A stretch of DNA of 64,000 nucleotides from a virus (Duplodnaviria > Caudoviricetes): the IMG/VR virus record IMGVR_UViG_2522572160_000003. One strand, 5' to 3'. A model generated the notes under the pieces. The model did no database searches. It was not told where the DNA came from and saw only the letters and a list, made by a program, of their open reading frames with translations. Position 1 is the first letter of the stretch. Each line of letters opens with the position of its first letter. Positions 17,518-48,073 of the stretch are shown one piece after another. The position numbers and the translations under genes were made by a program.

Positions 17518-17569
17518 GGGGGATTTAGACCAGAAACTATTCAACCAGTGTTACCAACGAAAGAGCAGC

Positions 17570-18049: not shown

Positions 18050-18062
18050 GGAAGGTCTCCTT

Positions 18063-19145: not shown

Positions 19146-19303
19146 TGACTCCTGGCTATGTAGAGGAATTTTCAGTTTTGAAATATCATGAGACCGCAAT
19201 TGAAGCAAGTACGGTCCTCATCAATGGATCTTGAAAAAAATGAGCTTACCAGATCATCGTTTCATTAGACGATACAATTTTTAAAAAAGGGAGGTAGAAG
19301 ACA

Positions 19304-20777: not shown

Positions 20778-23102
20778 TTAATTGAGGGCTGAAATTTTTT
20801 GCCAAGAGCTGTTTATCAGAGTATCCTGACTATTAGCGCCCTTGTTTTCATATAATGCATGGTATATCCAGGAATCACGAAGTGAGTCCTTAATATATTT
20901 CTCAACCAGCGGATTTTTGGCCATTTCCTGAATAGAGGCAAGTAAGGCGCTCCGGTCTCTGGGCCATTTGTCACCGGCGTATCTGAAATAATCTATTGCT
21001 TTTTGTTCATGAGGGGCCGCATCCCAAACAGATTTTCCTCTTGCAAGATCCTTTTCATAATCACCCATCTCTTTATAATGCATAGCAATAAATACGCGAT
21101 CCTCAAACCTGCATCCCCAGTCACCTTTTGTTACAAATTCATGACGTTCATCAATAGACCCATCTCTTTCAATAGATTTATATTTTTTAAAACAATCCCA
21201 TGAAATAATAGAATAGGAAGATAGTTTTTCATGTTGATTTCTTAGTGATCCATCTTTTTCCAGCAAAGATTCATACAGGTTCCTACATTCCTCATAGGAT
21301 TTCTCGTAAACATTGCAATGAGAGTATATTGGTCCAGACAATCTCTGAGCCAAAAATGAGGCTTGATTTTCGAACAACCGTTTCGCCTCATACATGACAC
21401 TTCTATGATATGACTTGATAAATTGTTTATAGATATTAATAACTTCGTCAGACAATTCATGCGAAACATATTTTTTTAACAAGGGCTCCAAATCAGCGCT
21501 TTCAAAAGCCACTATTGTTGCTGGGGCGGCCCTCATAGGATTATGCTCGGCTATGAGGTTCTCCATAATCTCTACATTCTTTGCAATATCGACATATTGC
21601 TGTAGATTCCATACGGAAATGATTTCCGAATCCAGTCCTAAAGATTTTCTTCCTTTTTCTAAGCCCGAGGAAGATTCCATAACTTCTTTAAAAATCTTCC
21701 ATTGGTCGTCTAAAGAGGAAAGTTTCTTCGTTTGAGAGCTGTCAAGATATTCCAGGTATCTCTTAGATTTTAGTATTAAAAGGATAGCTTCAAAATCCTC
21801 TCCTCGGCGCAGAAGTCTTCTTGAACATCCCTCTATTTTCTGCGCTGGACTGGCAGATTTGCTGAAATACAGCCAATTATGTAAATCTTCCATGGCTGCA
21901 TTACAGTTAAAATGCAATTTGCGGACAACGGAACGTTTAACGTCACTCCAAAACCGTGCGCTGCTTGGCGGTTGCTCAGGGAACTGATCAAAAGCGTCCA
22001 GAAATTCAATGAATGGATCTTTTTCAGAAACGCAAGAAGAGGAGAGGTCCATGGATACATAAACCTGCAACAAGCTCAGGCAATTTTCATATTCAGGTTC
22101 TACCTTGAATAGAGACTGCATATCCTCCGTTCTTTCAGTCCATAGTTCTAAGTCTGAAAGCCTAAGAGATCTTTCCTGACTCGCTCCGGCAGATAGCGCT
22201 TCGTCAATTTCAGCCGCTAAGCCCCACATGCCGGCCGTTTTGTCGATTTCTCGCCACTGAGGAAGATTATGGAACTTCACAAGATTTGTTTTGCTAATAA
22301 TTTTGAGACATTCAACAGCTCTTTTATAACAAGCAGCCTTCTCCACGGATGAGTTAGCGGTTTTAGCCCTTGCATCCAAATTATAATATTCATGGATGGT
22401 AGCAAATATTCTCTTCAAGGGCTGGACGTCTACGCCAATCCTTTCCAATTCTTCCAGGTCGTTAATTGCTGGTTGTATGTATTCTTTCGTAACATTTCCG
22501 TCCGCGAAAATTTCATTTAAAAGCCTGGAATAACGACATATATTTTCTATTCTATCGACATCAAAATGGAAAACATCAGCCCAAAAAGGCTCTATTTCCG
22601 GACAAGGCATTGTCCAGGGAGCGTTCATGAACTTTTCCGCCTTGTTCTGAAGGTGGGCGTTTTCATTTTTCAGTTGATCTGCTTTTTGGGGAGATATATA
22701 CTCAAGACGTTTGAAGGCCCTGTCAGCGACCTCTTTGTTATCCATGATTCCATAATACAGACTGTAATACAGCCACAAAGAATACGCCTGGGAGTCAGAC
22801 GGGTTATACAGGTCCTTTAGTTGAACCATCAAATTCCGGGCTTTAACTGAATTTCCTTCTTTGTTATATGCGTCTACAAGATAGATGGCGCAATACGACC
22901 TCGTTTTGTTTTGATTCATAAAGGCTTCCGCTGCGTCTATATCGGCGGCTTTGATTTTCATTTCTAATATTTCGCATGGAGAAGCGAAGATGGGCTTCAA
23001 CTGGATAACAAAAAAAAGGCATATTACTCCAATCACAAAAACTATCCTTGCAGGGTCAATAACAACCAACCTACGCGGATATTTGTGAAGAATTTGTTTC
23101 AC
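20778..23102 (-). CDS. Large exported alpha-helical (TPR-like) protein, paralog of 23193-26567
   Basis: N-terminal hydrophobic signal/TM; shares C..L...I.A.D...AE...CAI.L...Y...GN..KA...WLYYSL with its neighbour. Confidence 0.8.
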   Translation of the reverse strand: MKQILHKYPRRLVVIDPARIVFVIGVICLFFVIQLKPIFASPCEILEMKIKAADIDAAEAFMNQNKTRSYCAIYLVDAYNKEGNSVKARNLMVQLKDLYNPSDSQAYSLWLYYSLYYGIMDNKEVADRAFKRLEYISPQKADQLKNENAHLQNKAEKFMNAPWTMPCPEIEPFWADVFHFDVDRIENICRYSRLLNEIFADGNVTKEYIQPAINDLEELERIGVDVQPLKRIFATIHEYYNLDARAKTANSSVEKAACYKRAVECLKIISKTNLVKFHNLPQWREIDKTAGMWGLAAEIDEALSAGASQERSLRLSDLELWTERTEDMQSLFKVEPEYENCLSLLQVYVSMDLSSSCVSEKDPFIEFLDAFDQFPEQPPSSARFWSDVKRSVVRKLHFNCNAAMEDLHNWLYFSKSASPAQKIEGCSRRLLRRGEDFEAILLILKSKRYLEYLDSSQTKKLSSLDDQWKIFKEVMESSSGLEKGRKSLGLDSEIISVWNLQQYVDIAKNVEIMENLIAEHNPMRAAPATIVAFESADLEPLLKKYVSHELSDEVINIYKQFIKSYHRSVMYEAKRLFENQASFLAQRLSGPIYSHCNVYEKSYEECRNLYESLLEKDGSLRNQHEKLSSYSIISWDCFKKYKSIERDGSIDERHEFVTKGDWGCRFEDRVFIAMHYKEMGDYEKDLARGKSVWDAAPHEQKAIDYFRYAGDKWPRDRSALLASIQEMAKNPLVEKYIKDSLRDSWIYHALYENKGANSQDTLINSSWQKISALN

Positions 23103-23192
23103 TACTTCCTCCAGATTGATTTATTTTATTGCCAAATTCTCAAGGATTAACAATAGAGCATGGCGGTGAAACAAGCAATGGACATCTAACTC

Positions 23193-26100
23193 TTATTCAT
23201 TTACGGCTTTCATTGCTTCAAAATATTTCTTCATTTCCTTAGCAAGGTTATCCATCTCATCTGAATAACTATATTTTTTATAGGGGGTATGTATTGTTAC
23301 AATAGCTTTGTCATATTTTCCCATTTTTTCATAACCCAATGCAAGTACATAAGAACGGATGAATTCAGCCTCAGACATCCTATTAGGGTTGCCTTGCCCA
23401 CTACTAACAGGCTTGGCATTACCGTTTTCGCCTTTTTCATACCTATAAAATGTATCCAGTCCCATTTGCAAATTATCCAGGTGTTCGTTAACAGAAAAAT
23501 CGTTGTCTAATAGATACCTAACTGCCTTTTTTAACTCATTTCTTGGGTCATAACTTTTGCCGCTTTGAATATTGTCGTTTCCTCCCTCTAACAGATTATG
23601 AACCAGAGAAAAATATGAATTCTCTTTTGCGACAGCAATTGCCTTTTCCTGTAAACCTTTCCTTAATTTTTCGATTTCTTGTTTATTAGTTATATATTGC
23701 GTGGGCTCACCACTATCGTCACCTGTTGAAGAAGTTAGCTTCTTATATAGCCAACTTTCTTTTGTTAAATAATCTTCTTCTAATATAGAGTCATCTGTTC
23801 TACTATTCCCTTTGTATTTTTTAAAAATATCGCCAGCTTTAGCGAAAATTTCTTCCTGATCCTTTTTCTCGGCCCATCGATCATCTCCGGCACTGTTAAG
23901 CATTTTTAAAGCAGTACCAAGGGCTTTGGGAGTTTCATTATTAAGCCATATATTTGCCATAAGCATATAGTAATTAACTATTACAGGCTTAATATTTTTG
24001 TTTTGCTTGAATTCAGTAAGAAGAAGCTTTTCAGCGTCCAAATATTTGAAATCCTGCATAAAATTACTATATTTATCACAAAGATCATTGGAATGAATGT
24101 CTCCACAATATGAACTTCGTAAACTTGCAATTTTAATTTGATCCATCAGTGATTTTGCTCTTTTGATAATTTGGCTTTGGTCATTTTCACTTAACTTACT
24201 CTCCTTTACATAGTTTATAAGATCTGTAAGTTTATTTTTTGCGTTGTCATAGTCGTGCTCGTATAGTAAGCGCTCAGCCTCCTTAAGATTTTTCTTCGCC
24301 TCGACAATTACCTGGTCGCCAGGTTGGTTGCCTGTTTGTAAACTTTTTATTTTAGCAAGGAGTTCTTTGATCTCCTTTTCGGCACTTTGCTTACCTTGTT
24401 CATGATCAGAATCCAAGTCTTTAAAGCATTGAAGAGCAAATTGTATTTCCTTTTTTGCTTCCTCATACTGTTCGTTAGATATGTACCGCTTTACACCTTC
24501 TATGAGTTTATTACATTCAGAAATAGCAGTGCTATCTAATATTTTTTTAGCAATGTCGCGTTCCTCTGATGATTTCTTGCCAAAATATAATTTATTCTCA
24601 CCAATATCCAAAAAGTTTTTGACGTCTGGATCCATATAAAACTGCAATTCATTTATATTCATACTATTTTGTGTTAAGTTTTGTAATAATTCTTTTTTCC
24701 TTAAAGCATATACATAGAGCTTAATTTCGGGACTTGCAGACGAGATTTCATTTTCGTTAGAAAAATTTTTTTTTATATTTTGGTATTTATGCCCAAAAGA
24801 TTTGTAGATATTACCGTCAATACGTTTGGTAAGGAAGTCAAGACCTTCGTCAATCTTCTCATTCTTATAAAAGTTCCATGTCATAATCATTACATGTTCG
24901 TGGAACTTGGAGAAAAACTCACTATACTCTTTATCCCAGTCAGGATAATTCTCAAAATTGGTTTGATTATCGTTATAACTGTTAATAATTTTTCCCCTTA
25001 ACGCTTCGAACTCAGGAATAAGCTCTTTACTTGCTTTGCCTTCATCATTTTGAACGAGAACCTTCATTTCCTCTAAATATGTATGAATTTCAAGGTTACC
25101 CTGTAAACCTCGTGACGAAATTATTTTTGTATTAAGTTTACCCAGTAGTGTCTTCTTTTTTTCATTATCTTGTTCCTTATTGAACAAATCCAGGTATTCT
25201 TTTTGTTGGACCAAATAGGCCACAGTGTTTCTATCTTCGTCAGATAAGTATTTATAATATTGCGCCCCCTTTTCTACATACTTAAGGTACTCGTCAAAAT
25301 CGTTGCCATCTTTGACTAAATAGCCCGTGTTTTTTAATGCACAACAGGGCTTATTATCTTCAAGCCAGCCCCTCAAACAAATGACGGTGGTTGCAGACAT
25401 CTTTTTCAAATCAGCAATAATTTCTTCATAAGACGTTTGAAAAACCTCCTTTTTATATACCTCTTGATGCGAATTAAACTTGTTCAAAAATTCTATTCTG
25501 GAATCGTTAACGCCTAGATAATGGTTCATTATGCTATGTGCACTCACATACTTTTCAACGAGCTCTAAGGAGTTCATATATTTGGAATCTGGTTTATAAT
25601 TTGAGGCCAAAGACTGAGCCTTGTTACGCCATTTTTTAACTGCAGCCGAATCCGGAAGCCCCTTAGAGAAACCTTTTGTAATTGCAACAGTAAGGTCCCA
25701 TTTTTTGATATTTAAATCAATCTCACTCCCTATGTTTGGTTTTTTTACATCATAGTGAAGGCCTGAAAAAGCCCTACTTGCGTCTTTGGCCGCGTTCCAC
25801 TCATTCAGTATTTCTGAAGGTTCTTTACCACTCCCTTGCGATTGCATCTTTTTCGCATGATTGAATTTTTCGTAAAATTTTTTTACCTTCTTAAAATCAT
25901 TCAAACGTGCGCCCACTTCAACACCGTCTGTTTTTAGTTTGGTCAAGACATCAATAGTTTTTGTTAAGTTGGTCTGGCTATAATCATTACTTCTTATGTA
26001 ATTTTTGTATAGCTGAACATTTCTATCTATATTGTTAATTCTTTCTGAATTGATTTCATCAAATAAAACTGTTGATAAATAGGGGACTTCAGGTTTGGAT

Positions 26101-26567
26101 TTTTCAAAAGGATTCTTACAATAGGCCATAATTTTTTTTGCTTCCGCCGATAATTCTTTTTTGAGATTATTTGCTTCCGGTTGAAACCCATAATTCAGAT
26201 TTTTCCAGTAGGAATCTGTGTCCGACTCATCCACCACACCAAGCAGCAACGAATAATACAACCAATATTTATATGTTTCAGAAATATCTGAACGATAATA
26301 ATTTTTATAATTTTCCAATAGTTCTTTGGCTTTTTGAGTATTGCCTTTCTCCACATATTTTTTTATGAGAAGTATTGCGCAATGATTACCATTGCGTTCC
26401 AACAATTGTTCAGCCCCTATTAAATCTCCCGCATTTATGTAATCATTCAAGTCCCAGCAATCCTGAGGGAGATCATCCTGGGCCAAACAAGCATTTACAA
26501 AGGTTATTAGTGCAAAAAACATTGAAAGAAGCAGAATGGCGGAACCGCGGTTAATCGTAGTTTTCAT
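23193..26567 (-). CDS. Large exported alpha-helical (TPR-like) protein
   Basis: Signal peptide; TPR-like segments (YEEAKKEIQFAL, YDNAKNKL, LALGYEKMGKYDKAI). Confidence 0.8.
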   Translation of the reverse strand: MKTTINRGSAILLLSMFFALITFVNACLAQDDLPQDCWDLNDYINAGDLIGAEQLLERNGNHCAILLIKKYVEKGNTQKAKELLENYKNYYRSDISETYKYWLYYSLLLGVVDESDTDSYWKNLNYGFQPEANNLKKELSAEAKKIMAYCKNPFEKSKPEVPYLSTVLFDEINSERINNIDRNVQLYKNYIRSNDYSQTNLTKTIDVLTKLKTDGVEVGARLNDFKKVKKFYEKFNHAKKMQSQGSGKEPSEILNEWNAAKDASRAFSGLHYDVKKPNIGSEIDLNIKKWDLTVAITKGFSKGLPDSAAVKKWRNKAQSLASNYKPDSKYMNSLELVEKYVSAHSIMNHYLGVNDSRIEFLNKFNSHQEVYKKEVFQTSYEEIIADLKKMSATTVICLRGWLEDNKPCCALKNTGYLVKDGNDFDEYLKYVEKGAQYYKYLSDEDRNTVAYLVQQKEYLDLFNKEQDNEKKKTLLGKLNTKIISSRGLQGNLEIHTYLEEMKVLVQNDEGKASKELIPEFEALRGKIINSYNDNQTNFENYPDWDKEYSEFFSKFHEHVMIMTWNFYKNEKIDEGLDFLTKRIDGNIYKSFGHKYQNIKKNFSNENEISSASPEIKLYVYALRKKELLQNLTQNSMNINELQFYMDPDVKNFLDIGENKLYFGKKSSEERDIAKKILDSTAISECNKLIEGVKRYISNEQYEEAKKEIQFALQCFKDLDSDHEQGKQSAEKEIKELLAKIKSLQTGNQPGDQVIVEAKKNLKEAERLLYEHDYDNAKNKLTDLINYVKESKLSENDQSQIIKRAKSLMDQIKIASLRSSYCGDIHSNDLCDKYSNFMQDFKYLDAEKLLLTEFKQNKNIKPVIVNYYMLMANIWLNNETPKALGTALKMLNSAGDDRWAEKKDQEEIFAKAGDIFKKYKGNSRTDDSILEEDYLTKESWLYKKLTSSTGDDSGEPTQYITNKQEIEKLRKGLQEKAIAVAKENSYFSLVHNLLEGGNDNIQSGKSYDPRNELKKAVRYLLDNDFSVNEHLDNLQMGLDTFYRYEKGENGNAKPVSSGQGNPNRMSEAEFIRSYVLALGYEKMGKYDKAIVTIHTPYKKYSYSDEMDNLAKEMKKYFEAMKAVNE

Positions 26568-26703
26568 TTTTTAGCCTTTGTTTGCCATATAAAGAGTTTT
26601 AAACTCAAATAGTTCAGGCGCAAGCAGCGAAGACATGCACATCGAAACAAGTCGTGGTCCCAAAAATGACCTATTTCAAGAGTGCCCACCCCCTACAATC
26701 TTA

Positions 26704-29136
26704 CTACAGAACAGCGTCAGACGACTCACAGTTTTGCATTAAAGACTCATCCATAAGCGCAGTCTTGTCAGAAAATGTTTCTTGAGATGCGCGTATTGGT
26801 TCGGGATTAAGCAACGCAGCCTTTAGTTCCGGGCTAAAACTGTTGGTTTCAACAAGTATCTCAATCCATGCAGTGTAATCAGGATTCATGGTGCAACCAT
26901 CTCCAGACATTGATCCGAACATCATTTCCAGGAACATTTCCCCCTTTAGTATATCGTCGTTGACTATTTGTGTATTTTCTGAATCTTTAAATGTTCCAGG
27001 ACTGAACTCTTTTTCAATGAGACCGATATTTCTCATGGATCTCTGAGATCTACGCAGCATGGTTTGAGAAGTCTCTGGGTTGAAATAAACCTCATCCTTT
27101 AAGCCTTTCCACAGCCTTCTAACTTCATAAATATTTTCATTTTTTGCAAACTTTTCGGATGAAAAAGTTAATAGCGCCATAAGGAAGTTGCTTGATGTAG
27201 GGGCAAGTTTAACAGCCTCGCCATGAAGGCTGGACATTGCAATAAACCGGCTGAATTTTTCATTCCAAATATTGCGGTTTGCAAGGGGATCGAGTTCCAG
27301 TAACAACCCTTGCTTATCTACAGATTGGTCAAATTTTTTGACCAAATAGGAGTTCAGGAAAAATGAAAGAATTCCATCATCTTGTGGATAGACTTCTATA
27401 AGGTATTCTCCCGGCAGCAAGTACTCGTGTGGAATATCTGAAAAAACATGCTTCTTAGCTGTATATAATTCATTTAAATTGGAAGCCTTCTTGATGATCT
27501 TTAGATAAACATCGTTCGTAACAAGGCCTTTCAATTCCGACACATCAAATGAGAATGGAACTTTGACAAAAGCCTTCTTCGGTAAACGAATTTTTTCAAC
27601 CCCCCTGCTTCTGATTTGTGCATTAGTCAATTTCAGCCCTTTTATCTCTCCTTCAAAAAAATCATCGTCAAGGGACCATCCATAAACAATTTTCGAGTCG
27701 CCTTCCGTGTAGACCTTGAGCTTGACCTTGCCCTTCTTTTTAGTGGGCCTAAACATTTTGATATCGCCTAAAGAACTATCCACTGGAGCGGCCCGAAAAT
27801 CAAACCCCTGGGCAAGATCGTGCCCAATAAAATCTTGTATAATGACCTCTTTAAACTTCATGCTGGGCGGATAGTTTTCTTTAATGTCCGCCTTGAGTAA
27901 ATCTTCCAACTTTCCCGCCGTCCATTTCATCATACTCCCTACCGAAGTTAACTCCTCCGGGGGGCAAACGTTTTTCATAGCTGGCGTAATAGAGCCCCCC
28001 TGCCTTTGGTCGGCCTTAGAGTATAAGGTAATCTTGGGCTTTGCAAATGGATTGTGTGTGTTGCCTCTGTCTATCCGGGCAAAATAGTCTGCATCATCAA
28101 GGACATTTTCGAGCGAAAGTCCGGACAAAGTATAATACACCTTCGCCTCGATGCGCCTTAAATGCCCAGCTTCAATTTCATCAGGAATGTGTTTCTTAAA
28201 GATTTTAGGCCCAACCCCTTCGTTGGCCAATAGGCGAGTTGAAAAAGCTACTTTGACTTTAAAATCCTTTTTGGTGGAAACAATGCATACTTCTTGTTTT
28301 TTATCTTTAACTTCAAGATTATTACAAAGGCAGTCTATGAGGCCTTCTGTATTTGGAATGGTACCTCCTGATATCCCGGACGCTGGAACTTTAATTGGAA
28401 TCACCTCCAACCGAACTCTATTTCCATATTTGTCTTTCAGGCGAGCCAAACCGTCTTTTACAAGTTGCCTGTTGGTGCTGCAATTTTCAGGGATATCCCA
28501 ATGATTCTTTTTACATTTAGTAACGTGATTTCGACTATATCGTATATCATCAAACAAGCTGTCTTTATTTGAATTGTAGCTTTCTGGCTTTTGGTTCCAG
28601 TCATGGAGATAGAATACAATCTTTCGATCTTCCTTTTCAGTGAGCCATGATTCCAAGCGGGTAAGATAGTTTATTAGATCGTCGTATTCCTTTTCTTCAA
28701 AATAAAAGGGCTTACGATTAACCTGATAATCAGGCTCCATGTCGCTGATAACTAAAATCTTGTCAATTTCATCAAAAATGTTCTTTTCTCTTAAATAATC
28801 TTCCGCCATTTTTAAACTGCCGTCAATCTTGGTGTAATTATCATTAAATGCAAATACTTTTTTTATTGTTTCCATTTTTTTACTTTTTGAACTTTTAATT
28901 ATGGGGAATATATTCCTCTCTACATCACAATCCCCTACAGGGGCGAACCAAGTGGGCCCACTGATGACCGACATAATTGCCAGCAAGTTCTCCTGATAAT
29001 TTTCACTCAATTCGGTCTTAATTGAACCCGAATTATCTAAAAACACTAATGTGTTAGCGCATGCAATCTTTGAGTAGAATATGGCCAGAGCAACGGCATA
29101 CAATATGAAAAGAGTTTTCCTTATTGTTACATACAT
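26704..29136 (-). CDS. Exported vWA (MIDAS) domain protein
   Basis: Signal peptide, then VFLDNSGS (DxSxS), YTKIDGSL (T) and ILVISD (D). Confidence 0.8.
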   Translation of the reverse strand: MYVTIRKTLFILYAVALAIFYSKIACANTLVFLDNSGSIKTELSENYQENLLAIMSVISGPTWFAPVGDCDVERNIFPIIKSSKSKKMETIKKVFAFNDNYTKIDGSLKMAEDYLREKNIFDEIDKILVISDMEPDYQVNRKPFYFEEKEYDDLINYLTRLESWLTEKEDRKIVFYLHDWNQKPESYNSNKDSLFDDIRYSRNHVTKCKKNHWDIPENCSTNRQLVKDGLARLKDKYGNRVRLEVIPIKVPASGISGGTIPNTEGLIDCLCNNLEVKDKKQEVCIVSTKKDFKVKVAFSTRLLANEGVGPKIFKKHIPDEIEAGHLRRIEAKVYYTLSGLSLENVLDDADYFARIDRGNTHNPFAKPKITLYSKADQRQGGSITPAMKNVCPPEELTSVGSMMKWTAGKLEDLLKADIKENYPPSMKFKEVIIQDFIGHDLAQGFDFRAAPVDSSLGDIKMFRPTKKKGKVKLKVYTEGDSKIVYGWSLDDDFFEGEIKGLKLTNAQIRSRGVEKIRLPKKAFVKVPFSFDVSELKGLVTNDVYLKIIKKASNLNELYTAKKHVFSDIPHEYLLPGEYLIEVYPQDDGILSFFLNSYLVKKFDQSVDKQGLLLELDPLANRNIWNEKFSRFIAMSSLHGEAVKLAPTSSNFLMALLTFSSEKFAKNENIYEVRRLWKGLKDEVYFNPETSQTMLRRSQRSMRNIGLIEKEFSPGTFKDSENTQIVNDDILKGEMFLEMMFGSMSGDGCTMNPDYTAWIEILVETNSFSPELKAALLNPEPIRASQETFSDKTALMDESLMQNCESSDAVL

Positions 29137-32148: not shown

Positions 32149-32182
32149 TGAGATACGACCTCCAGGTGGAGCAGCTCATGGA

Positions 32183-34653: not shown

Positions 34654-34690
34654 AAGTTGTCTCCCAAGCTCCTTATATTGTATAAATCCC

Positions 34691-36963: not shown

Positions 36964-36964
36964 G

Positions 36965-40264: not shown

Positions 40265-40277
40265 TTTAAACCCCCAA

Positions 40278-41759
40278 CTACCTAAAATTTATAGGTTTTG
40301 AAACGGCCAAAACACTTAGACCACCGTTACTAATTTCCCTGGTGATAAAATTAACACACTCGTTGTCACCATTGAGGCATGAAACCTGAAACCTATGCTC
40401 CAAAAGATAGACTTTGAAGAACATATCAGATGGCGGCTTTACGCCCGCTTTTCCCCAATCAATGGTCAGGGTTTTTTTCTGGAACTTATCAATATAGGAA
40501 TCGTTGTGGCGTATTAGCGGATAGGGGTAATCAGGTTCATTTCCATAATCAACTTCTAGTAAAACGTACCCCTCATGGCTGGACTCCACTTCCAAAGAAA
40601 TTTTGTCATCTAAAAATCTTTTTGAAACAATGTTAATTGCTGGCTTTGACTGTTTATTATCTACCCAATAAATTTGGGACAAACAGTCAAACTCATCTCT
40701 TTTACCCAAGATAACTTTACCGTTTACTCGTTCCACCGAATGAAAGTTTACTATTAATCCCAAGGCCTCTAACTCACTATTACTTCTTATAATATCGCCT
40801 CTTTTCACCAACATTGCGTGAGTGGCTGTTGCCGGCGCAAAAACGGCTTCACCATTATACAATTCGTTAAAAATTTTCCATGTTTCCACTCTGGGAATAA
40901 CTGAAACTTTGGTTCCCATACCAAAGAGATTGATCGCGTTCTCAATGTGATCAGGTAACTTAGATTTAATGTTTTCAGGCAATGATTCATCTATAATCAT
41001 ATCCAAAACCAACGGCCGCTCTGGATTTACAGCGTTATACCTACACAATAATGCAACGCCCATTATTCTTCCCAAAGATGCAGCATCGGCTGCTGGAGAG
41101 TCAGGGTAGCCTGAAATAAATTGGTAATCGCCTAACTTCCTTCCGCCATCTTTTGCGTAAAACTTATCGACGTTTCGATATTTTTCAGCCTTGAGAATTT
41201 TCTCGATTACACATGCTGCAGTATCAAAAGCTCCCTCTGCATTCCTTATCACCACTGTCAGTTTAACATCCTCATCGCTTTCACCGACATGGATATATCC
41301 AATGGATCTGGGCGCAGTTCTGCAAGGAAGTTGAGGTTTAATTCCTGGAGGGGGTTGAACATAATAGACAATATCGGTGTTCCCAAAAACATATGGAAGC
41401 ACACCTTCGGCACCATCAGTTGTCTTTTGCGCCTCAATCATTCCGCTTTCCAATTGCTTTCTGAGGCCATTCATTAACGTTGTCGTCTTTCCATAAGGAA
41501 TGCTAGGATAATCAGGGTTAGCAATAAGCAATAAAACCGGCAGGATATTCTCTGCCTTACAAACATCATATATTTCCTGGGCGCATTCCTGAATTTGTTC
41601 TTGATCGTCCTTCCTGCATTGCCTTTCTTTTGAAGAGATGCTGGAATCCCCGGAAAGGGAGGCACAGCCTGAAACAAATAGGCATAAAGCCATCATAAAT
41701 ACTGCGCACATCATGGTAGCCAAGCATTCTTTTACCTTATGACTTTTTTTGAATTGCAT
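40278..41759 (-). CDS. Putative lipoprotein
   Basis: Hydrophobic N-region ending in the lipobox-like VSGC; GGAGG RBS. Confidence 0.7.
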   Translation of the reverse strand: MQFKKSHKVKECLATMMCAVFMMALCLFVSGCASLSGDSSISSKERQCRKDDQEQIQECAQEIYDVCKAENILPVLLLIANPDYPSIPYGKTTTLMNGLRKQLESGMIEAQKTTDGAEGVLPYVFGNTDIVYYVQPPPGIKPQLPCRTAPRSIGYIHVGESDEDVKLTVVIRNAEGAFDTAACVIEKILKAEKYRNVDKFYAKDGGRKLGDYQFISGYPDSPAADAASLGRIMGVALLCRYNAVNPERPLVLDMIIDESLPENIKSKLPDHIENAINLFGMGTKVSVIPRVETWKIFNELYNGEAVFAPATATHAMLVKRGDIIRSNSELEALGLIVNFHSVERVNGKVILGKRDEFDCLSQIYWVDNKQSKPAINIVSKRFLDDKISLEVESSHEGYVLLEVDYGNEPDYPYPLIRHNDSYIDKFQKKTLTIDWGKAGVKPPSDMFFKVYLLEHRFQVSCLNGDNECVNFITREISNGGLSVLAVSKPINFR

Positions 41760-41899
41760 GTCCTCCCTCCCTGCATGCCAACTATACTATTAACGCGAAA
41801 GATCAGCTGTAACAGTTGAGTACTTGTTACACTCAGCAGAAGTCGCTTCTTCCAAATATAAACAAAACAGACACTACCCAAAATTACTGTTCATAGGTA

Positions 41900-42559
41900 T
41901 TATAATTGATAATTCTGGTAAAACTCCAAACGCTCCTCGTCATTCTCAAAAATCTTAAAACTGGAAATGCTGTTAAGAGCTTTAATCATGTCCCTTAATT
42001 GGGGGGTAATGTCTAAATTGGGCGTGCCATTTTTCTTGATGACCTCAAGCATGTCTTTTCCTATAATAATTTTAACGTTGCTTTTAACTCTTGAACGCAA
42101 TGCATCAGAGATATTATTAGGATAGGTGTTGGCTTCAGGCCCCACGATTCCGGTATGGATCGGAATGTTCAAAACGACTCCTTTGTCGAAGACAATTTGC
42201 CCGGAAAAATCGTATTCCACTTTTCCTTCCCAATGTTTGGCGGTTTCGCCGTGGTAGGTGGTTGTCTTTTCAACTAATTCCTTTTCATCGAATTTTCCAG
42301 TCAGCTTTACCTCGAGAAGATCTAAATCCGAATTTTGCTTGTCTAATTCCCCCCTTAATTCCTCCGCGATTTCTTTTCCTATCTGGGAAATTACACTGTC
42401 TGGGTCCATGTCAAACCCGCCATGATTCAGGATGGGTTCCGTTTCGGCGCCTTTCATAGAGGAGGCCTTTTGCAGCGGGTCATTGGCATTAGTCGATTGA
42501 ACCGCAATGATCATAAATGCTGAAATTAACAGTGATGTGATAAGTCTCATTTTGGTCAT
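41900..42559 (-). CDS. Exported hypothetical protein
   Basis: MTKMRLITSLLISAFMIIAVQSTNA signal peptide starting just after the SLT stop (ORF track start 42622). Confidence 0.75.
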   Translation of the reverse strand: MTKMRLITSLLISAFMIIAVQSTNANDPLQKASSMKGAETEPILNHGGFDMDPDSVISQIGKEIAEELRGELDKQNSDLDLLEVKLTGKFDEKELVEKTTTYHGETAKHWEGKVEYDFSGQIVFDKGVVLNIPIHTGIVGPEANTYPNNISDALRSRVKSNVKIIIGKDMLEVIKKNGTPNLDITPQLRDMIKALNSISSFKIFENDEERLEFYQNYQL

Positions 42560-42561
42560 TC

Positions 42562-43320
42562 CTATGCAGAAAAGCCGTAGTCCTTTTTTAAAATGGTTGC
42601 ATGCCGTAGGATGCGTTGGCAATAAACGTCCGGATCAATGGTTGTAGACCCATCTGTATAGTATATTTTACGCACGACCTTCTGGCCCTTAACGCCCTCC
42701 CTCCCTCTGTAGTAATATTGCAGGGCCATGCACCAGTCTTCATTTACTGATTTATCAAAATGTTGTTTTGGGTAGTCCTTAACTGACAAATCAAATTGCT
42801 TGCTTAGATAGTAGGCTCCTGCCATTATAGCCGTTTCCGGGTTGTTTCGGTTATCCCCAATATCTATGCCCCTTTCTTCTAACTCACATTGGATCTCCGT
42901 AAAAGTGGAATCTATAATTTGAGTCAGACCCTTGGCGGAAGACAATGGTTTTCCATTTTTGCCAATGGGAACGGCCTCAGGCCTACCTGAGGATTCCTGA
43001 TATATCAACCCGGCGATGATAGAAGGGGGGACTTTAAAGGTACGGGCAGCTTGCCAAACTTCTTTTTTGTATGGCACTACTGCTTTGGATATTATTTCCT
43101 TGTATTCTTTGGTGACGTTTTCAATGGGGCCGGTTTCGTTCTTGATGGAGTAATCTCTTTTATAAATCATCTCCCAGACCTCAAGATGTTTGCTGGCCTC
43201 CTTTAAAAGTTTCAATCCCTCTGACGCCGCAGCCATTCCGGAAAATATTATTGCCAGAATAATGAGCCAGCCCACACTATTTCCGAAATGTAAGATAAGT
43301 CGAGTTTTAATTTTACTCAT
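42562..43320 (-). CDS. Lytic transglycosylase (SLT/GH23 domain)
   Basis: IYQESSG (catalytic Glu), SAKGLTQI, NPETAI.AGAYYL, AL.YY; N-terminal signal/TM. Confidence 0.92.
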   Translation of the reverse strand: MSKIKTRLILHFGNSVGWLIILAIIFSGMAAASEGLKLLKEASKHLEVWEMIYKRDYSIKNETGPIENVTKEYKEIISKAVVPYKKEVWQAARTFKVPPSIIAGLIYQESSGRPEAVPIGKNGKPLSSAKGLTQIIDSTFTEIQCELEERGIDIGDNRNNPETAIMAGAYYLSKQFDLSVKDYPKQHFDKSVNEDWCMALQYYYRGREGVKGQKVVRKIYYTDGSTTIDPDVYCQRILRHATILKKDYGFSA

Positions 43321-43335
43321 TTCATATCCTGTTTC

Positions 43336-43788
43336 TCACTTACTTTCCACAAATTGAACAGATACTCCGCATCTGTTTAATCTCCCAGTCAAATCCACGG
43401 CGTCCACTCCTGATATGGATTCGTCAGTAATGAGCACAAAAGCGGTAACATCCTCCTCTTTTACGCTGTCCGCATCATTAAGGGCTTTTCGCAGCCCGGA
43501 GAGATCTGAATCATTCAGCCAAAAATGATCACCGTGAAATAATAATTCCACCTTTCCGCTACGTTTTACCGTTTTTACCACTAAAGATTTATCAACAACC
43601 TTATTCGGATCAAGTATAGCGTTGGCTTCAACAGGGATGGCCGGCACCCCGCCGCCCCCGGGATGGATAGTCATTAAGGCAAATGAAAAAAGCAGCATAA
43701 CCATGAATAAATAGGCGAACAGGTCCTTGCCGGGATCCTGCAGCGCCAAAAAAGGATCTTCCCGCCTGCAGCCGAATCGCCTACCCAT
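43336..43788 (-). CDS. ExbD/TolR-like protein
   Basis: Single TM starting with the conserved Asp (KDLFAYLFMVMLLFSF); C-terminal VLITDE.....AV.....L...G.SVQF; directly follows the ExbB-like gene. Confidence 0.75.
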   Translation of the reverse strand: MGRRFGCRREDPFLALQDPGKDLFAYLFMVMLLFSFALMTIHPGGGGVPAIPVEANAILDPNKVVDKSLVVKTVKRSGKVELLFHGDHFWLNDSDLSGLRKALNDADSVKEEDVTAFVLITDESISGVDAVDLTGRLNRCGVSVQFVESK

Positions 43789-44377
43789 TATTTTTCTCCT
43801 CAAAAGCGGGATCTGGGTTTGCATCCGCTTCCATAAGGCATTTTAATAGGGAAGAGATTCTATGATTAATTTTTTTTTCAAATGCTTTGAGCCTTGGTTG
43901 TGTCCTTACAGCAAGAAAAAAGATAATAACGGCGCCTATAGCTGAGCTTAATAGTGACGTCAATAGAGCCGTGTTCAACCCCCCCTCAAAAGCCTGCGAA
44001 ATAGCTTGCGTCGCTACCACATTCTGAGTGCTCAACGCCTTAGTCATCTCCTGAAACGCAAAAATGGTTCCATAGATCGTCCCAAAAAAACCCAAAAGAA
44101 TGGCTGAATTGACTACGCCGCCAATGCTGGCGACCTGGCTTGATATTTCAGTCTCATATTCCAACCACACCTGGTCAACGCAAGAATCCACCCATGATTG
44201 ATGATAGTTTACGCCTGGCTCAATGGGCAATAAGTCATCGATCCATGTCATGTCTTCTCTGGCTCTCAATTCGCCCCACACCTTGATTATTTTATATAAG
44301 ATTGCTATTGCCAAGCATACAAAAAGCAATACGAAAACCAGATCAAGGCTTTTGTATAGTTCAGACGGCGTCATCAC
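43781..44377 (-). CDS. MotA/TolQ/ExbB proton channel family protein
   Basis: Three TMs; AILLGFFGTIYGTIFAF and GGLNTALLTSLL signatures. Confidence 0.88.
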   Translation of the reverse strand: MMTPSELYKSLDLVFVLLFVCLAIAILYKIIKVWGELRAREDMTWIDDLLPIEPGVNYHQSWVDSCVDQVWLEYETEISSQVASIGGVVNSAILLGFFGTIYGTIFAFQEMTKALSTQNVVATQAISQAFEGGLNTALLTSLLSSAIGAVIIFFLAVRTQPRLKAFEKKINHRISSLLKCLMEADANPDPAFEEKNNG

Positions 44378-44551
44378 TTTCTACTTTCATTGTCTGTTGG
44401 ACTAAGAGCGCTCTCAAAAAATCAATATGCACTTTAAGGACAATGCGTTGAGTTTGAATCCCAACCCCAAAGGGATATTCACTCTCGTATTAAAGGCACC
44501 GATTTAAGGCGAGCTTTCTGAAAATAAAACTCTTGGTTCTGTTTTTGAAAC

Positions 44552-45256
44552 TTAAAGTCTGTTTACTATTTCGGGGTCAATGATTGTTTTATCCACTTGA
44601 GTGGGCGCATAACTGAGCCAAGCAAAAACCTGATCAATTCTGGAAACCATTTCATCAGGTACTAAGCCCATTTTTTCATTCTTTCTGTAGAGTTTCACTG
44701 CATCACTGCTTAAAAAGTCTAACTTTTCCTTGACAAACGAAGTACTGCCTGTAAAAGAGTCCACTTTAAACGATGGCGGATACTTGATGTTTTCTCTGAT
44801 TCTGTCGATTAACAAATCCACGCGCCCTATCCTGTCCTCCCATTTGCCGGCAGTTGAGTTGCTCAGTTCTTCAAATTCATCCTCTACGATTTGCTGGTCA
44901 GACGTCAACAACAGTTGAGCTTCCTCAGCAGTCATTTCATTGGCGACCAGTTCTTTTTCATATTTGCGCTTTACCAGCATTTTCTCAACCGCAAGTTGCT
45001 TTCTAAGCGTTGCTTCATAATCCTTGTAAACAATGGACTTATTGGCATGATAAACGGCTTCTTTGCAATCATTAAAGATGGAATCCTGCACAAGAAGGCT
45101 AATAATTTCTTTGTTGCTGATTTTGCTTGATTCTTCGTCAATCTCACGTTTAAGTTCCTTATTGCTTTCCTCATAGGATCCTGCAGAAGATTCCCCCACT
45201 TGAAAAGCCACTGCTAAAACCAATAACACACAAAAAACTATTCTATAATGGCGCAT
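44552..45256 (-). CDS. Exported helical/coiled-coil hypothetical protein
   Basis: Signal peptide MRHYRIVFCVLLVLAVAFQVGESSA; AAGGGAG RBS (ORF track start 45283). Confidence 0.75.
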   Translation of the reverse strand: MRHYRIVFCVLLVLAVAFQVGESSAGSYEESNKELKREIDEESSKISNKEIISLLVQDSIFNDCKEAVYHANKSIVYKDYEATLRKQLAVEKMLVKRKYEKELVANEMTAEEAQLLLTSDQQIVEDEFEELSNSTAGKWEDRIGRVDLLIDRIRENIKYPPSFKVDSFTGSTSFVKEKLDFLSSDAVKLYRKNEKMGLVPDEMVSRIDQVFAWLSYAPTQVDKTIIDPEIVNRL

Positions 45257-45315
45257 AATTATCTCCCTTACAAGATTACTCATCTAAGATGCCATTGTTA
45301 TTGCCAAAAAGCCCT

Positions 45316-46326
45316 CTAATCCAAAGTTAACCCTTTGTAGCGGGCCAATCTTTCATCGTTGCTTTCTCCAACATTGATGTTGGGCATTCCGCTTGGATTG
45401 TTTTTGTACTTTTCATCTAGTATACGTAAAGATTCCAAGCCTTCGTCTCTCATTAGCTTGTTCACATTATCCATTGCGGCTCCTGTTTTATCCATAGCTA
45501 AACTGAGATTCCTAAAAGCTATTATGCCTTCACGGAAAGACTTTGAGGCTATAATCATATCATCGCTGAAAGCCCCTGTATTCACCTGAGAAAACTTACG
45601 AAATAAGCGAATAAAATGACTATGGAACTTATCAGCGGCAGGGAGAAAACTATTTTTCATCAACAAGGCATTATCCTTCATTACCTTGTTGAATTGTTCA
45701 AGAAACTCGTTCTCCACTTTCATACTTTCATAGCTGACAATAATATTTTCAATTCTATCAAACTTTCTATCTATCGTATTTTGTAGCCTCGCCTTGCAGG
45801 AATCATTCCTACATCCTTTTTGTTCGTTAATAAGCCGTTTAATTTCTTTTTCTAAGGCTTCCTTGCCGCGAACCAGTTCACGACGCCTCTGTGGGATTTC
45901 GGCGTTCATTCCCCGCTCGGAAATGGCTTCAATCTCATCCACCCCTCTAATTACCATTTCTTTCAAGCTATTGACATTTTCAGTGGTGGATGAGGCATTC
46001 TTTGCCAAAGGGGAGTTCAACTTCACCACCGCAAGTCTAATTTTTAATGTGAGATTTTTACTCAAATCTTCAGGAACCTGGCCGTTGTAGCGGGATTCTG
46101 CCTCTTCCCATTCATTAATTATCTTGTCAATTTCAGTTTTGAATTCAACCATAGCCTTGGCAACTCCGTCTAACCCACTAACTGCATCCCCAGTAGCGTC
46201 TGTTATCCCCTTGATAGTTGTCACGGCTTGGTGAATGGATTCTTCCGTGGTGACTGCATGGCAAACAGGCGAAAACACCACTCCCATGAGCAGGATTGCC
46301 AAAAGAACTTTCCGTATTACTAACAT
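45316..46326 (-). CDS. Exported coiled-coil hypothetical protein
   Basis: Signal peptide (VCHA); heptad-rich helices; AAGGAGG RBS. Confidence 0.78.
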   Translation of the reverse strand: MLVIRKVLLAILLMGVVFSPVCHAVTTEESIHQAVTTIKGITDATGDAVSGLDGVAKAMVEFKTEIDKIINEWEEAESRYNGQVPEDLSKNLTLKIRLAVVKLNSPLAKNASSTTENVNSLKEMVIRGVDEIEAISERGMNAEIPQRRRELVRGKEALEKEIKRLINEQKGCRNDSCKARLQNTIDRKFDRIENIIVSYESMKVENEFLEQFNKVMKDNALLMKNSFLPAADKFHSHFIRLFRKFSQVNTGAFSDDMIIASKSFREGIIAFRNLSLAMDKTGAAMDNVNKLMRDEGLESLRILDEKYKNNPSGMPNINVGESNDERLARYKGLTLD

Positions 46327-46367
46327 GCCTTCCTCCTTGATTAGTGGAAATATGGGCCTTTTACTAT

Positions 46368-46874
46368 TTATTGCTGCACATAACCAGGATCAACCTTTTT
46401 CAACAGGCGTTTAGAGCAAAGCTCAACTTTTTTAGCCCGTCCGTCCATAGTTGAAAGGCTCCAGTCATAGATCGCGCGAAGAAACTCTTGGTCAGCCGCC
46501 CTCAGTTTCAATCTACCACCGGCTTGAGAATCTTCAATATTTGAAAAATATTGACATGAGGCCGCTACAAAATTCTCCATTTGGCTTTCCTTGTTAAAAG
46601 CCTTGATCGCTTCCACAAGCACGTCGTTGTCAACCCTCCGGTTGGCGTCAAGAATCTTGACAATCATAGCCATTCTGGCATCCGCATACCTGGAGTTGTC
46701 TTTAGTTTCGCGGAAAAACCTGTCAATTTCGGAATTTGACAACTCTGATACCGGCATAGTTTGCATTTGATCTACCGTCAAAGGGGCCGCCGATGGTTGG
46801 GGAGATTTTTCAACACACCCCGCCAATGATAAAGCCATAAGAACTGCTGCAATAATTGTCATCTTTCTCCTCAT
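46368..46874 (-). CDS. Lipoprotein
   Basis: Canonical lipobox LAGC after a basic/hydrophobic signal. Confidence 0.85.
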   Translation of the reverse strand: MRRKMTIIAAVLMALSLAGCVEKSPQPSAAPLTVDQMQTMPVSELSNSEIDRFFRETKDNSRYADARMAMIVKILDANRRVDNDVLVEAIKAFNKESQMENFVAASCQYFSNIEDSQAGGRLKLRAADQEFLRAIYDWSLSTMDGRAKKVELCSKRLLKKVDPGYVQQ

Positions 46875-46930
46875 AGTATCTCCCCTTTCTGACCTTCTAC
46901 ATTGGGTGCTATAGTAAAAACGCCTATTAA

Positions 46931-48073
46931 CTATTTAACCTGTACTATGCCCTTTTCTATGAAAAACGCTGCATCAGGATCCTGATTTATTAAGTCGCCG
47001 GGCAACAATTTCCAACCCTGTCCATCATCATAATACAACGGTATGATAAACGCTTGGCCCCTGGAGTCCACACCTGCATTTGAAGTCAAACGCCCGGCCG
47101 CCATTCTTACGGATAACATGCAATTAGGGGAATTCCTTTGGGACGTATGCCACTTTCGTACTGCATTTAATTTATTAAAAAAATAGCCGCAGTATTGTTT
47201 AGGAACAACGTAGTAGACGCGCTCAATTTTGCTTGAGCCAACTTCCTTGGAATACTTTTTTCGCCAAGCACGTAGTTCCTCTTCATGGTCATCCACGCAA
47301 GCCTCAATTTTAATCGGATACACAGCATCCAACTCGTCATCTTGAACCCAATCAAAATCACGAAAAGAACTCTTTATAAAAATACCGCCGTTGCTTGAAA
47401 TCAGCGCCAACTTCATATTCAAATAGGGATAAAGAGTTTTTAACATGTATCCTCTCGAATTTTTTATCTCCCAGGAAACATTCCCATCCCCGTCCCAGGA
47501 GGCGCTGTTAAGATCGTTGTGCAAAGAAAAAAAATCGTTTTCTATGCTCTCCGAGGTTTCAACTCCCTGTACGGATGTGAGCGTTTCAAAAGCAGACGTC
47601 TTTTCCTCCTCCTTTTGATTTTCTTGCTCCTGCACTTCTTCTTTCTGGGGATCTGGCTTCATTTCGGGCTTAGCGTCATCACTGTCAGCATGTTCGTCAG
47701 CTGATTCCCCTGCAGTCTGAGTTTCCTCTTCCTGCGGGCTTTCATCCTTCTCAATTCGTTTATCCGATTCCACCCCCAACGTGGTGGTTTCATCCATTGC
47801 ACCATCCGGCTTTTCACTCAGTTGTTCTGCACCGACATCTTTCGTATCTTTGGCCGCATTGGAATTATGATCTGTAGGTGTATTTGGAGAAGAGGGGGTT
47901 GGAGGCGTCGAACCGGGAAAAGGCTTTCCTGTCTCAACATATCCTGAAGAATCATCTGATTTTCCCCCGCCAACCAGGGGTGCGGCCATCTGCCATAAAA
48001 AGAGAATTATAGCCAAAATGACAACCGCAATCAGCAGGTAATTCAATTCCTTTCTCAACTTGTCCCTTTGCAT
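46931..48073 (-). CDS. Membrane-anchored protein with Pro/acidic disordered linker and C-terminal globular domain (TonB/TolA-like architecture)
   Basis: N-terminal TM, PFPGSTPPTPSSPNTP, ~130 aa E/D/K-rich linker, then a folded domain; first gene of the operon. Confidence 0.7.
   Translation of the reverse strand: MQRDKLRKELNYLLIAVVILAIILFLWQMAAPLVGGGKSDDSSGYVETGKPFPGSTPPTPSSPNTPTDHNSNAAKDTKDVGAEQLSEKPDGAMDETTTLGVESDKRIEKDESPQEEETQTAGESADEHADSDDAKPEMKPDPQKEEVQEQENQKEEEKTSAFETLTSVQGVETSESIENDFFSLHNDLNSASWDGDGNVSWEIKNSRGYMLKTLYPYLNMKLALISSNGGIFIKSSFRDFDWVQDDELDAVYPIKIEACVDDHEEELRAWRKKYSKEVGSSKIERVYYVVPKQYCGYFFNKLNAVRKWHTSQRNSPNCMLSVRMAAGRLTSNAGVDSRGQAFIIPLYYDDGQGWKLLPGDLINQDPDAAFFIEKGIVQVK

Follow-up and report, generated by a model that had tools for sequence, protein, structure and literature searches.

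A conserved cassette around a highly divergent peptide/nickel-type ABC importer and its stator-like companion genes on a low-GC island

INTRODUCTION

The described systems that come closest to the gene block treated here are the Opp/Dpp/Nik importers of the PepT family (including the MppA-Opp murein tripeptide route), the Ton and Tol-Pal systems, Zorya, the Agl-Glt gliding and focal adhesion machinery, the vWA proteins proposed as force transducers and the conflict systems of multicellular prokaryotes. In Myxococcus xanthus gliding, CglB serves as a vWA adhesin (PMC9946355) and the transglycosylase AgmT ties the complex to the wall (PMC11444678). It has been proposed that vWA proteins adjoining tolQ(R)-like and TPR genes act as force transducers (Williams-Jones et al., 2025; PMC12204202). 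Conflict systems of multicellular prokaryotes, in turn, make use of vWA, caspase, trypsin, FGS and PASTA/OmpA domains and of propellers (PMC7159879). The block in question comprises 19 genes, here numbered g1 to g19, on the minus strand at positions 48073-20778 of a 64,000-nucleotide (nt) stretch of DNA, called the window below, from the IMG/VR virus record IMGVR_UViG_2522572160_000003. What is new in it is a conserved cassette that reaches from the C-terminal propeller of g10 to g19 and is built of known kinds of parts. At its centre lies a bona fide but extremely divergent peptide/nickel-type ATP-binding cassette (ABC) importer consisting of a family-5 solute-binding protein (SBP), OppB/OppC-like permeases and a fused ATPase.

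A literature search on the component names returned no paper describing this combination, and no matching system was found in Pfam, NCBIfam or PADLOC. This agrees with the original prediction, made from the sequence alone, that the block fits no described system.

ORGANIZATION OF THE GENE BLOCK

The stretch from 48073 to 20778 contains 19 open reading frames (ORFs) of 162-1124 amino acids (aa), all on the minus strand, and no large ORF runs the other way. The tight packing on one strand that was originally noted is borne out by this layout: seven junctions are overlapping or abutting (g5/g6, g7/g8, g11/g12, g13/g14, g15/g16 and g16/g17 overlap, and g10/g11 are 1 nt apart), and only four gaps reach 90 nt or more (g4/g5 174, g8/g9 140, g17/g18 136 and g18/g19 90 nt). 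Promoter and terminator scans stayed at background level, with no strong terminator in the gaps, and Rfam and tRNA scans of the window returned nothing.

Most of the products are directed out of the cytoplasm. According to a hydropathy scan, 18 of the 19 proteins have an N-terminal hydrophobic segment (signal or anchor), the ATPase g16 being the sole protein without one, just as had been predicted for a set in which all proteins but the ABC ATPase carry a signal, a lipobox or a transmembrane segment. Lipoboxes are found in g2 and g9, and the same scan gave three transmembrane segments in g5, approximately five in g14 and approximately six to seven in g15. All 19 proteins were compared with Pfam, NCBIfam and PADLOC, Pfam and NCBIfam also at E<=10, and even at that threshold only g5, g7, g15 (weakly) and g16 gave Pfam or NCBIfam matches.

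A DIVERGENT PEPTIDE/NICKEL-TYPE IMPORTER

The SBP is the product of g13 (33013..34653, minus strand, as are all the genes of the block), a 546-aa exported and highly divergent protein of family 5 (Opp/Dpp/Nik type). There is no Pfam match and a PDB profile search gave nothing usable; for want of a Pfam sequence match, it is the fold that assigns it to family 5. ESM Atlas features (0.98) place it among proteins of which 28 of 30 neighbours are SBP_bac_5, and the structural comparison gives a TM-score of 0.70 over 458 residues. The motif SFTYIGFN...FRELFT is conserved in the family. A word-based search retrieved one relative of g13 only, and a motif scan of the genome collection none.

The two permeases follow directly. 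One is a 282-aa OppB/DppB-like protein (g14; 32183..33031), in whose family the EAA-type motif KLYVxSAxFKG is conserved in seven homologs. The other is a 407-aa OppC/DppC-like protein (g15; 30925..32148), which matches BPD_transp_1 below the cut-off (0.0059) and has the EAA-type motif DGERxxGxS, likewise conserved in seven homologs. The 601-aa cytoplasmic ATPase (g16; 29127..30932) contains two fused nucleotide-binding domains of the peptide/nickel type, both with complete Walker A, signature and Walker B motifs. Its best NCBIfam matches are NikE (3.6e-33), OppD, YejF and OppF, all below the equivalog cut-offs. The clade to which g16 belongs comprises approximately 35 sequence clusters at 30-42% identity (E 1e-104 to 1e-49), whereas generic Dpp/Opp ATPases appear at approximately 1e-25. 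The oligo_HPY C-terminal domain (PF08352), which the generic ATPase matches list, is missing from the clade. One ATPase of the clade comes from Beggiatoa sp. PS.

The importer thus shares with Opp/Dpp/Nik systems the family-5 SBP fold, the OppB/OppC coupling motifs and two ATPase domains of the NikE/OppD/YejF/OppF type. It differs from them in that all four parts lie below curated cut-offs, the SBP escapes Pfam, the ATPases are fused and PF08352 is absent. In addition, ordinary Opp/Dpp operons are without the five exported partner families that always flank the transporter of this block.

THE CASSETTE IN RELATED LOCI

The neighbourhoods of ten g16-clade genes or their partners (related loci are given L numbers here) were read and compared by local phmmer and jackhmmer searches. 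The same order was found every time: a propeller of the g10 C-terminal type, g11-like and g12-like genes, the SBP, two permeases, the fused ATPase, a g17-like vWA gene and usually g18/g19-like genes, the last of these standing behind the vWA gene in at least five loci. The propeller is often a stand-alone protein of 470-540 aa in the related loci. Approximately ten independent loci share the order, namely L003/L006, L005, L007, L008, L009/L016, L012, L013 (a fragment) and L097, together with two loci without DNA; the cassette is split over two strands in L005 only. The original prediction had named beforehand the co-conservation of the set across genomes as a point on which it could fail, and for g10-g19 the set is indeed conserved together, with its order kept. 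The GC content of the cassette loci ranges from 0.32 to 0.70, and the loci therefore come from very different organisms, for the most part uncultured bacteria.

A metagenome scan yielded four loci, two of them new. Scans of the genome collection with the g17 alignment, which is too variable, and with the ATPase alignment, which is swamped by generic Dpp/Opp proteins through the Walker A pattern, were uninformative.

EXPORTED PARTNERS OF THE IMPORTER

Five exported partners accompany the transporter: a beta-propeller (the C-terminal part of g10, described below), a PD40 propeller, an anchored disulfide-bearing protein, a secreted vWA/MIDAS protein and a large helical protein. The second of these is g11 (35647..36963), a 438-aa exported PD40-type beta-propeller and a core family of the cassette. 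ESM Atlas features (0.94) and structural TM-scores of 0.5-0.55 relate it to PD40/TolB-like clusters; no TolB_N or PD40 match was found in Pfam, and a PDB profile search gave nothing usable. Its homologs occupy the same position in L003, L005, L007, L008, L009, L012 and L097. Also a core family is g12 (34691..35650), a 319-aa membrane-anchored periplasmic protein with homologs in all cassette loci. Two invariant cysteines and a C-terminal YPxL motif characterize the family, for which a PDB profile search returned nothing.

The third core family is represented by g17 (26704..29136), an 810-aa exported protein composed of a vWA domain with a MIDAS (residues ~20-278), a beta-rich middle and a helical C-terminus. 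Pfam has no match for it, and the motif DxSxS...T...SDMxPD is conserved in five of six homologs. The AlphaFold2 (AF2) model has a pLDDT of 59.5, and the top 50 VIA matches are all vWA (Z 9.2-11.4; root mean square deviation ~3.3-3.7 over 160-197 residues). The ESM Atlas shape search gives the vWA fold as well. The domain begins at approximately residue 28, directly after the signal segment, which contains no His or Asp, and the signals of the homologs look cleavable.

The cassette ends in two exported helical paralogs, g18 (23193..26567; 1124 aa) and g19 (20778..23102; 774 aa), which are 24% identical over 577 aa (E 1.4e-32). Local jackhmmer searches detected g18-like proteins in L003, L006 and L007, and the resemblance of the pair to TPR proteins reaches an E value of only ~0.05. 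In L006 (11955-18051) a DDE transposase follows an ExbB-like gene and its g18/19-like neighbour, and after another 4 kb comes a second gene of the g18/19 type (727 aa), which is consistent with the helical end genes being mobile and becoming duplicated.

g10 AND THE VARIABLE WALL-BINDING NEIGHBOURS

The 1099-aa exported protein g10 (36965..40264) has three parts, an N-domain (~25-300), two repeat units and a C-terminal propeller (689-1099). An exhaustive HMMER search with g10 found four remote relatives, which divide the protein into the same N, repeat and C parts; a word-based homolog search, a method that is weak for such families, found only g10 itself. The propeller is the part that can be modelled. 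When the whole of g10 was submitted to AF2, pLDDT reached 60-80 only for residues 690-1099 and was ~30 in the N-domain, and residues 1-689 were not modelled usably. All top 50 structural matches of the 690-1099 model are propellers, with Z up to 14.8.

In the alignment of detectable homologs, His128 and Cys178 of the N-domain are invariant in g10, the 1030-aa protein of L016 and the protein P0124, and by this motif the N-domain is putatively caspase-like. Neither PF00656 (C14) at E<=10 nor a PDB profile search gave a match to it, and no match was obtained when the N-terminus was compared with the genome's own C14 protein by hhalign. The tandem units of ~152 aa (368-519 and 524-674) are 31.6% identical to each other (E 4e-24), and each ends in a PASTA-like motif. 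PF03793 (PASTA) has no match in g10 at E<=10, whereas the L016 ortholog matches it at 2.7e-15 in two stretches; residues 617-643 of g10 align weakly (E 0.045) with the start of the L016 PASTA domain. In g10 itself the assignment is thus a candidate one, at the level of a motif. In the exhaustive search, a 2652-aa protein (P0127) showed six copies of a segment similar to g10 628-705, the PASTA-like unit end, and the end of the g10 repeat unit is accordingly a mobile repeat module that occurs elsewhere.

Proteins with wall-related domains recur next to the cassette in other lineages. The neighbours include an FGE-sulfatase protein with PG_binding_1 and a DUF4384 protein in L003, and an FGE-sulfatase protein with OmpA, a DUF4384 protein and an SH3_3-bearing g10-like protein in L005. 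In L007 there are SLT_2 with PG_binding_1 and an FGE-sulfatase, in L012 a LysM protein, and in L016 a g10-like protein with PASTA and an SLT. Trypsin neighbours occur in L008 and L097, the latter having PG_binding_1 and PAN domains downstream as well. Wherever a locus was well sampled, at least one domain that binds or cleaves peptidoglycan lies nearby, and most loci also have a protease or lectin head. The link to peptidoglycan made in the original prediction is therefore strong by context, and these neighbours are the strongest functional hint, pointing to the cell wall as the site or the target of the system.

THE FRONT MODULE AND ITS MOTOR-LIKE GENES

The upstream part of the block, g1-g9, contains the genes resembling a stator. 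The product of g5 (43781..44377; 198 aa, three transmembrane segments) is a very divergent ExbB/TolQ/MotA-like stator channel protein, which matches PF01618 (MotA_ExbB) at 1.6e-5 with 25.1 bits against a cut-off of 22.9. It scores far lower than the specific models demand (22.6 bits vs 206 for TIGR02797 exbB; 19.7 vs 221 for TolQ), and its assignment as ExbB thus indicates superfamily membership only. The PADLOC ZorA model matches it at 7.7e-5 over the MotA/ExbB core. The genome contains seven MotA_ExbB genes, of which g5 is the weakest and the other six are canonical (93-122 bits). The motifs LGFxGT..G and EGGL..AL.T are common to g5, a 201-aa protein of L016 and a 255-aa protein of L006. The adjoining g6 (43336..43824; 162 aa) has a single transmembrane helix, which contains an Asp, and a short domain in the periplasm. 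By inspection, the Asp-bearing helix is accompanied by an ExbD-like C-terminal motif, and no Pfam or NCBIfam match was found at E<=10, so that g6 may be called ExbD/TolR-like by motif only.

Next to these, g7 (42562..43320) encodes a 252-aa exported or anchored lytic transglycosylase of the SLT family (PF01464, 4.5e-13) in which the catalytic-Glu motif QESSG ... GLTQI is present. Its NCBIfam matches, to specialised transglycosylases of flagella and of type III secretion systems, are below the cut-off. The 380-aa protein g1 (46931..48073) consists of one transmembrane helix (13-31), a long acidic and Pro-rich linker and a folded C-terminal part. It has no Pfam or NCBIfam match at E<=10, TonB_C included, and its helix, LNYLLIAVVILAIILFLWQ, contains on inspection no Ser or His and hence no SHLS-type motif; g1 is TonB/TolA-like in topology only. 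The remaining genes of the module encode a 168-aa lipoprotein with the lipobox LAGC at residue 17 (g2; 46368..46874), two exported helical, coiled-coil-like proteins (g3; 45316..46326; 336 aa, and g4; 44552..45283; 243 aa), an exported protein of ~215-240 aa (g8; 41900..42622), the real start of which is probably downstream of the called TTG, and a 493-aa lipoprotein with the lipobox VSGC at residue 29 (g9; 40278..41759). No family match was found for g9, nor in Pfam for g2 and g4, and g2, g3, g4, g8 and g9 have, like g12, no recognisable fold.

A comparable module is found in the closest relative, L009/L016/L099 (GC 0.32), in which the operon begins behind an AT-rich leader. The front genes of L099/L016 encode, in order, an exported coiled coil, a lipoprotein and an ExbB-like protein of 201 aa; next come a 244-aa protein whose helix bears an Asp and whose linker is rich in Lys and Pro, an SLT (1e-29), a small exported protein and two lipoproteins. 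The window order g3/g2, g5, g6, g7, g8, g9 is parallel to this. Sequence similarity between the two front modules is nearly gone. The positional counterpart is nevertheless the best match among 15 candidates for g3 (0.037), g5 (5.5e-4), g7 (0.0025), g8 (0.067) and g9 (0.15). The counterparts in L099 are a 250-aa protein for g3, a 184-aa protein for g8 and a 420-aa lipoprotein for g9, and a 213-aa lipoprotein stands in the position matching g2. Between the lipoproteins and the g10-like gene of this relative (L016:5227-10912, equal to L099:7899-13334) there are genes for a 1595-aa WD40-repeat protein and a 303-aa HNH-like protein, which have no counterpart in the window.

In L006 (GC 0.61) an ExbB-like gene with a weak PF01618 match lies downstream of the cassette. 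Ahead of it stand four genes whose exported products are coiled-coil or Pro-rich, and an ExbD is absent. The motor is a recurrent but not universal companion of the cassette. The idea that ExbB, ExbD and SLT genes are conserved together with the rest accordingly holds in part: it is supported by position in the closest relative and by the ExbB-like gene adjoining the cassette in a third lineage, and fails on the L007 contig, which shows no motor gene.

Taken together, the domain calls are of uneven strength. The ExbB-like protein (weakly), the SLT, the PD40 propeller, the family-5 SBP, the OppB/OppC-like permeases, the fused two-domain ATPase, the vWA with MIDAS and the end paralogs are supported. 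The ExbD-like, caspase-like (His/Cys) and PASTA calls stay at motif level, TonB/TolA is a matter of topology alone, and the TPR-like call goes no further than the E value given above.

Upstream of g1, at a distance of 420 nt and on the same strand, there is a 106-aa ORF with no family match (48495-48815, minus strand). Approximately 1.7 kb upstream of g1 and on the opposite strand lies a gene resembling YkuD-type L,D-transpeptidases, which are cell-wall enzymes (49810-50682, plus strand; 4.8e-5), and after it comes a gene for a TPR protein (51812-52588).

COMPARISON WITH STATOR-DRIVEN AND CONFLICT SYSTEMS

Pfam and NCBIfam scans gave no match to a TonB-dependent receptor, Pal, secretin or secretion ATPase among the 19 proteins, in line with their absence from the original gene list. 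The Ton system was rejected as a counterpart, as g1 has neither the SHLS/His helix nor TonB_C and none of the 19 proteins matches Plug or TonB_dep_Rec. Tol-Pal is similar to the block in its TolQ/TolR-like stator, a TolA-shaped anchor, a PD40 propeller as in TolB and links to peptidoglycan; it was rejected since the operon has no Pal/OmpA-like lipoprotein, the TolQ score is far below the cut-off and there is no TolA or TolB profile match. The likeness to Zorya is the match of g5 to the ZorA core. At 198 aa, g5 lacks the long ZorA tail, PADLOC found no ZorB, ZorC or ZorD, and Zorya was rejected as well.

With the proposed vWA force transducers (PMC12204202) the block shares an ExbB/TolQ-like stator, a vWA/MIDAS protein and helical or TPR-like proteins in one cluster, and the L006 locus also has an ExbB-like gene without ExbD. 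The published systems, however, include no ABC importer, propellers or SLT, and g17 is 11 genes away from the stator. The published transducers were rejected as a match for g17 because its vWA domain directly follows the signal, with no Pro-rich linker, SHLS/His helix or Asp trans-pore helix. The Agl-Glt machinery of gliding and focal adhesion (PMC11761067, PMC9946355, PMC11444678) has in common with the block a TolQR/ExbBD stator and TonB-shaped, helical repeat, vWA and transglycosylase proteins. The sequences of the two are related no more closely than by superfamily, and the core of the block is an ABC importer with two propellers. No match to the Agl-Glt cytoplasmic platform or the outer-membrane Glt barrels was found among the 19 proteins, which are too divergent for a firm absence. 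The conflict systems of PMC7159879 differ from the block in having NTPase switches, in being cytoplasmic or membrane-proximal and in having no ABC importer.

A LOW-GC ISLAND IN THE HOST GENOME

The operon has a GC content of 0.396 against 0.544 for the genome and is the lowest 27-kb stretch in it (0.09% of windows). It is part of a low-GC island (GC 0.38-0.46) of at least 55 kb, which covers positions 1-55400 and 62500-64000 of the window (contig C9, from 1 to ~66 kb) and contains 11 of the 28 low-GC 5-kb windows of the genome. It begins at a contig end, and no tRNA, integrase or flanking direct repeats were found at the island ends. The host carries dsrA (sulfite reductase). Searches did not find g10 in 40 relatives or the g13 family in 400 genomes of the same phylum, and two congeners share with the whole window only a MucR gene and small fragments. 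From its composition and distribution, the block is a horizontally acquired accessory system on a large foreign island.

The ROS/MucR gene (17570-18049) is the only part of the window that is well conserved in a congener, at 80% identity and in two copies (G001:C60 and G001:C28). Both copies lie 2-4 kb from a segment similar to window positions 58.8-59.1 kb, whereas in the window the two are 41 kb apart, which suggests that the operon region was inserted into a recurring MucR-linked module. Inside the low-GC island, a 7-kb block (55400-62400) has a GC content typical of the genome (0.53-0.57) and a strong A-over-T skew of +0.2. It contains genes for an AAA ATPase (55405-56874) and a UvrD-type helicase (60607-62436), with many overlapping ORFs on both strands between them. 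The left flank (1-19208) looks like a defence or modification gene set. Its products are a coiled-coil protein, a helicase of 1159 aa whose C-terminal domain is restriction-endonuclease-like, DUF6933, a glycosyltransferase of family 2, a metallo-beta-lactamase-fold protein and two radical SAM enzymes, one of them B12-binding.

POSSIBLE FUNCTIONS

We read the block as one horizontally acquired cluster of two modules, a conserved cassette from the C-terminal propeller of g10 to g19 and an add-on consisting of g1-g9. Between or around them stand lineage-specific exported proteins, in the window represented by g10, in which a protease or lectin head would be combined with a domain that binds peptidoglycan. 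The function that we favour, tentatively, is that of a periplasmic assembly, anchored in the wall, which would take hold of a peptide-bearing substrate or cut it and then import it, a proton motor being an optional addition. The exported partners would form the assembly, and this would capture, and in some lineages cleave, an envelope substrate that bears peptides; the most plausible candidates are the stem peptides of peptidoglycan or a protein bound to the wall. The product would be passed on to the binding protein, after which ATP-driven import would follow. The SLT may open the wall locally for the assembly or for the release of substrate, and the stator, where present, might give proton-motive energy to the outer step. 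What this account is built on, namely gene content, folds, synteny, island location and rarity, is a matter of observation.

Several points weigh against it. The complex, the single transcription unit and the substrate are each putative. The candidate caspase-like domain is recognised by the conserved His/Cys pair, and the possible PASTA units of g10 itself by motif. The wall-binding domains could simply tether periplasmic proteins and so be uninformative on the substrate. No motor gene is present on the 25.5-kb contig of L007, and none was seen in L005, L008, L012 and L097 within the stretches read; the motor may thus be separable from the cassette. Finally, there is no recognisable outer-membrane barrel, so that a stator would have no evident target.

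A more ambitious form of the same idea, which we consider doubtful, is a machine of a class not recognised before, spanning the periplasm and energised both by ATP and by the proton-motive force, in other words a mobile organelle for harvesting or sensing cell-wall peptides that would spread by horizontal transfer. A dedicated and highly divergent ExbB/ExbD-type stator, together with a specialised transglycosylase, would then install and drive a wall-spanning assembly of two propellers, a MIDAS-vWA protein and helical scaffolds. Peptidoglycan-linked peptides of the cell itself or of a neighbour would be seized, cut by interchangeable protease heads and fed to a private Opp-like importer. It is also unlikely that force is the main output, as it would be in a trans-envelope machine of the Agl-Glt or motor-driven vWA kind serving movement, adhesion or cell-cell contact, with the stator pulling on propellers, vWA and helical repeats through g1 and the coiled coils, the SLT as an anchor and the ABC transporter as an assembly or regulatory accessory. 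The parts do overlap with those of myxobacterial gliding (TolQR-like motor, TonB-like, TPR, CglB, AgmT), and vWA proteins beside tolQ(R)/TPR genes have been proposed as transducers (PMC12204202), to which g17, a vWA fold with a MIDAS followed by helical-repeat genes, and the lone ExbB-like gene of L006 would correspond; one cassette ATPase comes from a gliding filament (Beggiatoa sp. PS). The best-preserved genes, however, are those of the importer and not of the motor, which is unseen in several loci, and g17 has a cleavable-looking signal followed by the vWA domain, with no linker and without the His/Asp helix of the published families. Nor were cytoplasmic coupling proteins or outer-membrane barrels found among the 19 proteins.

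The foreign low-GC island, with its helicase-nuclease, DUF6933, AAA and UvrD genes, invites the thought of an envelope conflict system directed against phages or competitors or used in kin discrimination, in which detection or attack would fall to variable wall-binding sensors and effectors (caspase-like, trypsin, FGE-sulfatase lectin, WD40, DUF4384), and the ABC transporter would import a signal peptide or export nothing. The rare and patchy distribution over very different GC contents, accessory heads that vary by lineage and draw on the domain vocabulary of the PMC7159879 systems, and the duplicated and diverged end genes would all suit such a role. We nevertheless think it improbable: apart from the likeness of g5 to ZorA, which is of the generic MotA/ExbB kind, PADLOC found nothing, Pfam and NCBIfam revealed no STAND- or MoxR-type NTPase switch, nuclease or obvious toxin in the operon, and the published systems are cytoplasmic or membrane-proximal and without an ABC importer. 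Just as hard to credit is a chance juxtaposition, in which two or three unrelated operons (motor and SLT, ABC cassette, end paralogs) happen to lie head to tail. The gaps of 174, 140, 136 and 90 nt and the motorless cassette of L007 would allow for it. Yet L099/L016, at 32% GC, has a front module of the same order ahead of the cassette, an ExbB-like gene adjoins it also in L006 at 61% GC, and g18/19-like genes stand behind the vWA gene in at least five loci; the gaps, moreover, contain no strong terminator, although that scan was at background level.

CONCLUDING REMARKS

The cassette represents seven new protein families with clear synteny, which can be studied as a set. Should the partners really act together with the transporter, the ABC importer would possess a front end outside the cytoplasm, made up of propellers, a vWA protein, scaffolds and interchangeable wall-binding protease or lectin heads, an arrangement that has not been described for Opp/Dpp systems, and ExbB/TolQ-type motors would gain a job outside Ton, Tol, flagella, gliding and Zorya. 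Rarity (approximately 35 ATPase clusters among 5.8 billion protein clusters) and mobility limit the general importance of the system. At the same time, they make it a clear example of how an accessory envelope system of large size passes from one bacterium to a distant one.

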